DNA of 62,174 nt, counting the filler, from Diploschistes diacapsis (taxonomy: Eukaryota): NCBI GenBank assembly GCA_023645945.1. It is 8 parts of 8 records of this genome, joined end to end, with 100 filler letters (N's around TTAATTAATTAA, not from the genome) between each part and the next. Parts side by side here need not be neighbours in the genome. Positions count along the whole stretch, not along the records: positions 9,996 to 14,878 come from JALAIB010001639.1; 7 more parts are not named here. The stretch is one strand, 5' to 3'. A program made the position numbers and the translations under genes. Within the stretch, counting starts at the first letter, position 1; every line of letters begins with the position of its first letter. Below are positions 9,996 through 12,796 of this stretch, piece after piece. The notes beneath the pieces are model-generated. The model saw only the letters and a program-made list of their open reading frames with translations, had not been told where the DNA came from and did not search any database.

Positions 9996-10092
9996 TATAG
10001 ATACAATCCCTTTTGATTAAAATTCCCCCGTAATTCTGTTTTATATAACTTTTATTTCGATATAAGATTGGTTCTTAATTTAAAAACATATA

Positions 10093-10757
10093 ACGTATAT
10101 GTATAGCGAGCGGACACTCATAGCGAACGGATACCCCCTATCTAATTTTACGAACTTTCAACTTTCGCATCAATTTTCTACACGTACGATTATAGAATCA
10201 TCTTTAATTAAAAAGAGAATCCTAATAACACTTTAGAGTATTAAATAATGTATATGTATAGCGAGCGGACACTCATAGCGAACGGATACCTCCCATTCGA
10301 TTTTTTGAACTTTTAACATTCGTATTAATTTTCTACGCGTACGATTATAGAATTATTTTAATTATAAATAGAATTATAATAACACTTTAGACTATTAAAT
10401 AAAATTTACATTTTAACATAAAACGCGTATTTTAGATATATAAGATTTTTCGTACGACCTTTATTGTTCGACGCGATAATCGTATTTTAAAACACGATAT
10501 CTTAATTAATTTAATAAATTTAATTTTATTAAAAGAAGAAACGATTTTTGAACGTACGATTAATTTAATCGACTATAATTTTCCGCCGCGATAAAACGAT
10601 ATACGCGATATAACTAATTTAATGCGCGTAACTTGAAATACGCCGCCAATCGGACCACGATAGATATAAAACTTCGTACGAAAATAAAAAATACTTAAAA
10701 TATATTATTAAAAAATATTAATTAAAGATTTATGAATCGTACGAAATTAATTCGATC
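10093..10757 (+). mobile_element. RIP-degraded Fot1/Pot2 (pogo, Tc1/mariner superfamily) transposon 5' end, present as two copies (10093-10247; 10248 onward)
   Basis: TA|ACGT terminus at 10091-10096 and TA|ATGT at 10246-10251, followed by a near-identical ~150 bp. The degenerate translation RTTF..RR..R..LKEETI....NL....FPPR*.D..D..NL.....PPIGPR*..NFVR matches the psq-HTH/CENP-B N-terminus of Fot1-type transposases. Very AT-rich with many stops. Confidence 0.8.
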
Positions 10758-12044
10758 TGGAACATCCTGAACGTTTGTGGGTTCAAGGGTTGAACCCTTG
10801 TAGGGCTGGTAGGGCTGGCACCCAGTATTTATATGTGCCCTGCTCCCACCTAGATAGTTCCTTCTTCACCTTTTCGAATCTGAACCATTCAGCCTACAGA
10901 TTGCAGCTACACGTGATCCTTCCAGATTAGGCCTAGCCCCTGGTTGTGTAGTATTCCTGTAGGGGCGTTCTACATTCGAAAAGGTCCTTCAGGGCTACCT
11001 GCTCGGCTCAGGACCTGAAGTATTCAGCCTACCTACCTACCTACTACCTACCTACCTACCAAAAGAATCTAGATCTAATCTTATCTGATGCTGCCTACGC
11101 GAGCTGGCGCGTTTTTGAAGATGAAGGTCTACGACACCTAGGAGCGACGAAAAACCTCCTACGACAAGCATCCACCTAAGAGCGACGAAAAGCTCCTACG
11201 AACAAGCAAAAGATCGACGAATCAGAAACCTCGATCTAATCAGTATTCAGCTATGGCTATAGCTGAAGTGCTAGATTTAGTCTTATCTGTCGCGATGAGA
11301 CACTACCTAAGCGAATACCCTGGTAGTAGTAGATCTACGTACGACACACCCACCTGGAGCGACGAGAAGCTCCTATGAAGAACCTACGACAAGCAGATCG
11401 ACGAATTAGAAGTTACGATCTAATTAATTACGATAAAAGAGCTTGGGATCCCATATAAGTTTTTGAACCAGTCGAACCTTCATTTTATCGATAAATAAAC
11501 CTTTATTCGTCATCTTTCGAAAGCGGTTTCTGCTGTCACGTTTACTGCTGCTATTACTGCTTTTCGTCTTGGGAGTCGCCTGTTTTTAGTACTATTGGTT
11601 TAATAGTATTCATTTACGATGCCGAAACTTGAAAGGAGTAAGGTCGGGCACGTGTTTACGTGTAATACGGATTAAAGATAATAGAGGGAAAAGGGATTAA
11701 ATTAAACCGAAAAGAGCATGATATTAAGATATGAGAAGAATAGATATTCGATTAGGAAAGGGGTTTTATTTTGATTTTGTTTTGTTTTGTTGTTAAAGGA
11801 TAGTAATAGTTTAGAAAGGGGGATAGTGGAACATTTTAATCGTTTGTAGGTTTAAGGGTTGAACCCTGGTAGGGCTGATAGGGTTGATATCTAGTATTTA
11901 TATGTGCCCTGCTCCCACTTAGATAGTTCCTTCTTCACCTTTTCGAATCTGAACCATTCAGCTTACAGATTGCAGCTACACGTGATCCTTCCAGATCAGG
12001 CTCAGCCCCTGGTTGTGTAGTATTCCTGTAGGGGCGTTCTAGCA
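10758..12044 (+). mobile_element. Non-autonomous miniature LTR retrotransposon (TRIM/LARD-like): LTR1 10758-10974, LTR2 11827-~12044, self-complementary PBS 10974-10985, PPT 11813-11826
   Basis: Two ~217-bp direct repeats TG..CA differing mostly by transitions. Purine tract agaaagggggatag abuts LTR2. The ~850-bp interior has no ORF in the track. No target-site duplication is evident. Confidence 0.85.
11027..11060. repeat. (CTAC)n imperfect microsatellite inside the LTR element
   Basis: gcctacctacctacctactacctacctacctacc. Confidence 0.8.
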
Positions 12045-12796
12045 TTGTGGTTAGTCTTTTGGCTCAGTGGGATAGTTACTACCTATTAGGCACTAACCCC
12101 CGCTGTTACAAATAACTTATTATTTAATTATAATGATTATAAGGATCATTATTAAAATATATATTTAGAAATATTAAAATAAAAAGATTACATAGAAAAC
12201 ATAAAAATATAACGTAAAACAACGATTAATTTAGTTTAATTCAATTTGATTCAGTCAGTCAGTAATTTTAGATTTTTAAAAATCAATTAATCACCTTCAC
12301 CGCACCTTTCGGAGTTAATTTCTTATCTACGGTTTTTTATATGCCCTAATCACATTAATATATAAAATAGAGCCCTGCGCTTCGCTCAGGAATCATTAAG
12401 TAAATTATATCAACAAAGCTATAGGGATGCAATCCCAACAAATAGAAAAAAGGAGGGATGTGAGGGTGCAACCCCCCACTAACCTCCCCAATTTTTTAAA
12501 CATTATTTTGGCTTACTTTTTCACCTTCGCTTAGGAACTTGGAAGGCCACGTAGGCGGACATGTGATAATATAATAACCACCCCAATTTCGGAGCCACGA
12601 TGAATGGAACCTTGTGTATACCTCAAGAGTGTGTCTCTTCTTATTGATATCAACCAAGGTGTTTCAAAGTAACAGTTGATTCAACTATGAAAGCGGTCAT
12701 TTTGGGGTTAGGTGAGGCTCCTCGCAGGCGCCGCCACCAATTCTATGTTGCATTCCATGCGATCCTATTATTTCACCTGTCGAGAAAAACTATGCT

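Follow-up and report, generated by a model that had tools for sequence, protein, structure and literature searches.

A miniature LTR retrotransposon family of Diploschistes diacapsis with a predicted self-priming site and a probable chromovirus helper

The window analysed here, a stretch of 62,174 nucleotides, consists of contigs of Diploschistes diacapsis joined by N spacers. One of them (G000:C712, from an assembly, G000, that is fragmented into 4361 contigs) carries a miniature element between two LTRs, with the following parts:

10758..10972, plus strand: 5′ LTR, 215 nt, TGGAAC...GTTCTA
10758..10867, plus strand: putative U3, holding most of the family's indels and transversions
10826..10834, plus strand: TATA-like box, TATTTATAT, 42 nt before the primer start
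10868..10879, plus strand: predicted self-primer, the presumed first 12 nt of the transcript and start of R
10880..10972, plus strand: R-U5, with predicted nested stems closed by the primer:PBS helix
10973..11826, plus strand: non-coding interior of 854 nt (complete copies: 815-868), containing microsatellites and short internal repeats
10974..10985, plus strand: PBS, complementary to the element's own LTR, one base (10973) past the LTR end, without TGG
11813..11826, plus strand: polypurine tract (PPT) and TAG spacer, abutting the 3′ LTR, the spacer being as in the helper family
11827..12041, plus strand: 3′ LTR, 215 nt, ending GTTCTA

The initial annotation had placed the right-hand bound of the element at 12044, which has to be corrected to 12041, the last 3 nt belonging to a neighbouring, unrelated LTR fragment; the LTRs end in GTTCTA (TG...TA), not in CA, the CA at 10973-10974 being part of the junction between LTR and PBS. 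The remaining architecture had been read correctly: a purine tract followed by TAG adjoins the 3′ LTR, no TGG of a tRNA-type PBS follows the 5′ LTR, and a TATA-like motif begins at 10826, its distance to the primer start measuring 42 nt where about 35-40 had been estimated. The interior is indeed non-coding, with a longest stop-free run of 78 codons in the window copy and of at most 108 in the 21 copies extracted; gap blocks whose length is a multiple of 3 number 12 out of 62, a tblastn comparison with 123 RT, chromodomain, gag or metagenome loci gave no match and blastn one short AT-rich match, and Rfam gave 0 matches. The two LTRs of the window copy differ by 16 transitions and 2 transversions over 215 nt. 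This copy has no TSD (CGATC on one side, GCATT on the other), and on the right it is flanked by the final 69 nt of an unrelated high-copy LTR, the remainder of which does not form its left flank; in view of these odd flanks, the copy probably arose as a recombinant from two insertions or through a misjoin.

The fragment on the right (12042-12110) represents a third LTR family (192 candidates, 40 scored), which the miniature abuts inside that family's predicted primer segment. The same family includes a two-LTR non-coding element of 589 bp (L298:155-743, G000:C1029), with an LTR of 164 bp, an interior of 261 bp, a PPT, 10 nt of PBS complementary to its own LTR and no TSD, and this is a candidate for a second self-priming miniature in the assembly. 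Beyond the fragment lies a gene for a CCA tRNA nucleotidyltransferase (PF01743; 12716-13654, plus strand, and onward), which starts about 0.7 kb from the 3′ LTR and whose product has its best named homologue in Thelotrema lepadinum (74%), followed by other Lecanoromycetes. The sequencing run that best contains the sequence is a lichen metagenome, and a lichen-forming Lecanoromycete is the most likely host. To the left of the miniature, 10090-10402 is an AT-rich tandem duplication of about 155 bp, probably another RIP-decayed repeat.

The element is not a single-copy relic, and further copies with the same interior and 5-bp TSDs, which the initial annotation had proposed to look for, are present in the assembly. 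Of 231 candidates from the LTR search, 40 were scored, and the search with the interior (837 nt) gave 38 candidates, all of them scored, and 40 matches, 18 of which span about 800 or more of the 837 nt at an identity of 72-100%. Nine of the 21 extracted copies include both LTRs and both flanks and are 1245-1297 bp long; the TSD is an exact 5-bp one in five of them, has one mismatch in one and is lacking in three, the window copy included. Many solo LTRs of the family are also found. The junctions between LTR and PBS (25) lead into the miniature interior in 23 cases and into an inverted U3 in two, all 20 junctions between PPT and LTR lie on contigs with interior matches, and no coding DNA was found beyond any of these 25 and 20 junctions. 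Contigs of three sequencing runs from three studies cover both the miniature LTR and that of the helper described below, and one of these runs (X1) may be the source of the assembly. All the miniature copies seen are RIP-type relics: transitions amount to 0.128 and transversions to 0.024 in pairwise comparisons of 15 interiors, and C-to-T change is highest in the CpA context (0.38) and lowest in CpG (0.08).

Two complete copies (L039, G000:C1243; L035, G000:C1747), with near-exact or exact TSDs, have LTR pairs that differ by 22 and 8 U3 transversions, a mismatch that could be due to intermolecular plus-strand transfer or to gene conversion. Several miniature copies (L046:~1246-1658, L036, L007, L056 and L062) contain or adjoin, in addition, a non-coding element whose inverted ends are TAGGCTGGCCGT-like and whose internal repeats are ACACGG; it looks like a MITE family.

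With respect to the usual properties of LTR retroelements, the miniature has the two LTRs, the position of the PBS, the PPT and the 4-6 bp TSD, and lacks the TG...CA termini. Among 56 distinct complete LTRs from the fetched loci, 53 end in GTTCTA, three in GTTTTA and none in CA. An exact 5-bp TSD directly follows the TA in 10 of 17 solo-type LTRs (those with neither PBS nor PPT alongside), or in 13 if one mismatch is allowed; a TSD two bases further on occurs in none of the 17, and a CA end at 12044, which would require that offset, was rejected. On sequence comparison, TA is the real end of the family, because the T of the terminal dinucleotide is present in 56 of the 56 LTRs, whereas at 13 internal CA sites the C survives in 30-56 of them. 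The origin that we prefer for it, as a possible one, is one C-to-T change that had become fixed in the founder before the family amplified.

The central feature of the element is the relation between PBS and LTR. The PBS (ATTCGAAAAGGT) is the exact reverse complement of 10868-10879, as had been claimed, and it consists of 12 nt that start 1 nt after the LTR end, which falls within the definition of a self-primer as at least 10 nt complementary to the LTR and starting 0-5 nt past the 5′ LTR (PMC6317226). When dinucleotide shuffles of the LTR were compared with the first 20 nt past it, a complement of at least 12 nt appeared in 0 of 20,000, and 11 nt were reached by nine. The complementarity holds across copies, with a perfect 12-bp helix in 12 of 20 miniatures and departures that, with one exception, are transitions. 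As regards covariation between 10868-10879 and 10974-10985, which the initial annotation had proposed as a check, none is found within the miniature family, where the departures are of RIP type, but one compensatory swap separates it from the helper family: helix position 2 is C:G in 18 of the 20 miniatures, and in 39 helper copies it is G:C in 22, mostly RIP-type derivatives in the rest, and C:G in none (the 20 and 39 being those of the 25 miniature and 107 helper junctions with enough upstream sequence). This swap counts as a single evolutionary event rather than several. In both families the helix comprises exactly 12 bp, with neighbouring bases unpaired in nearly all copies, and its predicted median pair probability is 0.74 and 0.94 in the two.

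The region R-U5-PBS is predicted to fold with the same nested topology in miniature and helper, the central helix and the stems 5′ of the PBS appearing in both, with modest z-scores of -1.90 (9 of 200 shuffles as good) and -2.54 (4 of 200); out of nine pairs changed between the two folds, four are compensatory, two are one-sided and kept, and three are lost. The Tf1 ‘pretzel’ has a third duplex, formed by the LTR with sequence 3′ of the PBS, which is absent from these minimum-energy folds, the program used being one that cannot draw pseudoknots. An 18-nt near-copy of the R segment 10880-10897 is also found at 11015-11032, 30 nt downstream of the PBS, and could pair with U5 as an alternative fold.

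The primer begins 42 nt from the TATA box in 43 of 56 miniature LTRs, where the range is 38-45, and, out of 56 helper LTRs examined, in 31 of the 33 that could be scored; a pyrimidine followed by A occupies -1 and +1 of the predicted start in 55 of 56 miniature LTRs. Positions 1-110 of the LTR contain 23 transversion and 15 indel columns out of 120, and positions 111-215 contain 4 and 5 out of 113, with no transversion or indel column common to at least two of the 56 LTRs in the primer segment itself; variability thus falls at the primer start, which would place the U3/R boundary there. The subtypes of U3 and of R-U5 occur in all four combinations (39, 11, 4 and 2). The primer segment would then be the 5′ end of the transcript, with the start at or near A10868.

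As for the source of the enzymes, an RT search of the assembly gave 56 matches, of which 30, translated, comprise several Ty3/gypsy families and two LINE-like ones, nearly all broken by stops. The initial annotation had suggested an autonomous chromovirus sharing the LTR, and this was found in part: the family of G000:C466 shares the TATA-R-U5 core of the LTR (score 186, against a control maximum of 38), but the U3 upstream of the TATA region and the end of U5 differ. The other gypsy RT families have no LTR in common with the miniature at the loci examined. The C466 element (L153, 6268 bp) has, between direct repeats, a gag-like sequence followed by RT, RNase H, the zinc finger and core of integrase, SH3 and chromodomain, which is the gypsy order; stops and frameshifts interrupt the element, and no intact helper was seen. 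Its family, with 107 LTR-PBS junctions, has LTRs of the form TGAGAC...GTTTCA (CA in 28 of 37, and TA by RIP-type change in 9 of 37), exact TSDs in four of six solo LTRs, and a PPT followed by TAG, as in the miniature. The helper primer is AGCTTTTCGAAT and its PBS ATTCGAAAAGCT, the latter having 11 of 12 bases in common with that of the miniature. As candidate partners, the two share the TATA-R-U5 core, the PPT spacer, 11 of 12 PBS bases and, as will be seen, one TSD-flanked chimera, but not the upstream U3 or the U5 end. The possibility that the miniature interior is a remnant of the helper UTR or gag was rejected, since three interior parts aligned at scores of 42-45, against 45-54 for reversed-query controls.

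The chimera, L102 (G000:C2023, minus strand), begins on the left with CGGGC and a complete helper LTR, followed by one base, the helper PBS and an inversion of its own U3 (114 further nt), and then come, after a switch at a 2-nt overlap, the last ~120 nt of the miniature interior with the PPT, a whole miniature LTR ending GTTCTA, and again CGGGC. Over 126 nt, the inverted arm departs from the U3 of that same helper LTR by 6 transitions and 1 transversion. The target sequence is repetitive too, and its empty site is found at L198, with the flanks joined, one copy of the 5-mer and 27 of 30 bases matching beyond, as well as in loose contig ends (4 contigs in X1 and 7 in X3); for the inner junction there is no bridging piece among the contig matches listed. 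L102 is the only fold-back among the 107 helper junctions. Given the exact TSD and the empty site, it most likely represents a single cDNA, with the left end of a helper and the right end of a miniature, inserted by integrase. Two of the 25 miniature junctions, L056 and L062, also show the PBS continuing into a complete inverted U3: L056 is cut by the contig end, while L062 (G000:C1724) has no TSD and has two U3 arms of different subtypes, which would fit a cDNA whose PBS tail annealed to a resident LTR. At the loose ends at L102:278-281, contigs of run X2 join a miniature-like R to a helper-like U5 end, some with differing PBS starts (agreement 0.72), and may belong to an intermediate family in the organism of that run (organism A).

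Taken together, it is highly probable that this is a non-autonomous LTR retrotransposon family of a lichen-forming ascomycete, with minus-strand priming in the style of Tf1, copied and integrated in trans by the C466 family. The tRNA-independent self-priming and the mobilisation in trans by a chromovirus that the initial annotation had suggested would thus find support in the conserved helix, in a helper with the compensatory change and in the chimera; likewise, chimera and swap would support co-packaging and a real primer helix, the link to the helper through the chimera coming from one locus. [quoted passage not shown]

Alternative explanations concern, in the first place, the identity of the helper and of the primer. 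The true helper could have been a coding element, extinct or missing from the assembly, that carried the miniature's own LTR and left its UTR remnants as the interior, with C466 as a sister family occasionally co-packaged; self-priming would still be real. The differences between miniature and C466 in the upstream U3, the U5 end and one PBS base agree with such an origin, and with 4361 contigs and RIP eroding old copies, a lost element is conceivable. However, the miniature junctions described above lead to the miniature interior or to inverted U3 and none to coding DNA, and L102 unites a helper left end and a miniature right end within one TSD, so that we regard this origin as unlikely. It is very improbable that the complementarity is inherited and unused and that a tRNA fragment or another RNA primes instead. 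The PBS contains TTCGAAT, which we take to resemble the T-loop motif of tRNA and which would account for 7 of the 12 bases; nevertheless, there is no TGG, the helix is a perfect one of 12 bp with a compensatory swap between families, and three related coding elements from other metagenomes (58 loci, of which 30 of at least 4.5 kb were examined, four having LTR pairs and three being scored) have different PBSs that match their own LTRs at 11, 11 and 10 of 12 positions, counts that have no chance control and that in two cases come from AT-rich elements.

Other explanations take the unusual structures to be products of later events. The inverted LTR-PBS-U3 structures and the chimera might have formed after integration, through annealing of the Rad52 type or ectopic recombination using the 12 nt of homology, or be chimeras of assembly or library, and would then reveal little about reverse transcription. 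L062, with no TSD and two U3 subtypes, would suit the integrase-independent insertion at PBS-like sites shown for Tf1 (PMC11042837), L056 starts at a contig end, and the assembly is a short-read metagenome. Against this stand the exact TSD and matching empty site of L102 and its inverted arm, which is its own U3 apart from the seven changes mentioned; homology-driven replacement would not give termini that are family-specific to the last base, and the insertion of a PBS tail itself needs a cDNA that has retained the primer copy. On balance, such a later origin is quite unlikely. The TA end, in turn, could be read as RIP damage to a normal CA end, copy by copy after insertion: GTTCCA would match TGGAAC as a perfect inverted repeat, mutation is most frequent in the CpA context, and some helper LTRs have acquired a TA in this way. 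But a terminal T in every one of the LTRs, when the internal CA sites so often keep their C, largely refutes this reading, which is scarcely credible.

If we return to self-priming with mobilisation by the C466 family, a further step may be proposed tentatively, and with considerable doubt. [quoted passage not shown] In a mixed particle, the swapped base beside the 3′ end of the tail would block normal plus-strand transfer, and the helper strand would fold back and then switch to the miniature template. If so, the position-2 swap would be a partial barrier between parasite and helper, and the TA end would be accepted by the helper integrase. In any case, self-priming miniature parasites seem to be an expected product of self-priming chromoviruses, and with a named pair of parasite and helper, self-priming in trans, co-packaging and the tolerance of integrase for a TA end become testable. 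In practical terms, annotation tools that demand TG...CA ends and a tRNA PBS will miss such elements or mis-bound them, as happened with this one.

Tf1-type self-priming and non-autonomous LTR elements are each already known, and the literature searched, which lay mostly outside subscription journals, gave no description of a self-priming non-autonomous fungal LTR element; what is new here is the identified helper, the helix covariation, the chimeric integrant and the TA end. In Tf1, it is the first 11 bases that pair with the PBS, with cleavage by RNase H between base 11 and base 12 (PMC7175516); a single-stranded copy of the PBS persists on about half of its cDNA, which can enter PBS-like sites in an integrase-independent manner (PMC11042837). 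Self-priming has been demonstrated for Tf1 and elsewhere inferred from complementarity, according to the sources consulted, and the present family, from a filamentous fungus, adds genomic evidence of other kinds: sister families differ by a compensated primer:PBS swap, the U3/R boundary coincides with the start of the primer, and rearrangements start exactly at the helix. As in the Tf1/sushi group, the miniature has a PBS complementary to a segment of its own LTR that follows a TATA box, lacks a tRNA PBS, and has a predicted folded R-U5 and a PPT, while the chromodomain integrase of that group is found in the helper C466 only; the miniature encodes nothing and so lacks the Ty3/gypsy pol of the group. 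Its helix has 12 bp where that of Tf1 has 11, the third ‘pretzel’ duplex does not appear in the predicted folds, and its U5 ends in TA, unlike that of fission-yeast elements, which is always CA in the accounts consulted. The end of its U3 diversity at the U3-R junction recalls Tosmo2, where a break near that junction is attributed to minus-strand transfer (bioRxiv 2022.12.06.519325).

The proposed label of TRIM/LARD fits loosely. Like TRIMs, the miniature has terminal repeats within 100-250 bp (215 nt), a non-coding interior, a PPT, a 5-bp TSD, many copies and solo LTRs; but TRIMs are defined by a length below 1000 bp and a tRNA-complementary PBS (PMC6934838), and the miniature measures 1.25-1.30 kb, ends in TG...TA and, judged by the missing TGG, has a PBS that is not tRNA-complementary. 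In sugar beet, the account available for 115 families describes all six PBS motifs as tRNA-derived (PMC13570524). Further comparisons can be found in PMC4600332, PMC2864245 and PMC5341516.

As a pair, miniature and C466 resemble Beelzebufo/Kyoko, Cereba/Quinta and Onsen in sharing an LTR regulatory core and a PPT spacer and in having a recombinant integrant. Identical PBS and PPT are a criterion for helper/parasite pairs such as Beelzebufo/Kyoko (PMC12542154), whereas here the PBS differs by one compensated base, and unlike in those pairs the miniature interior cannot be recognised as a product of deletion from the helper. For Onsen, co-packaged RNAs are described as recombining (PMC5668417), and L102 departs from recombinants of that type in that its inverted U3 begins exactly at the primer:PBS homology. 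Finally, an LTR end other than CA with normal TSDs has precedents in AcCOPIA1 of onion, with TG...TA ends, and in Rosaceae families with TGTT and AACA (PMC5659011); those families carry or had their own integrases, whereas the TA end of the miniature appears to be used by the integrase of a family that ends in CA.
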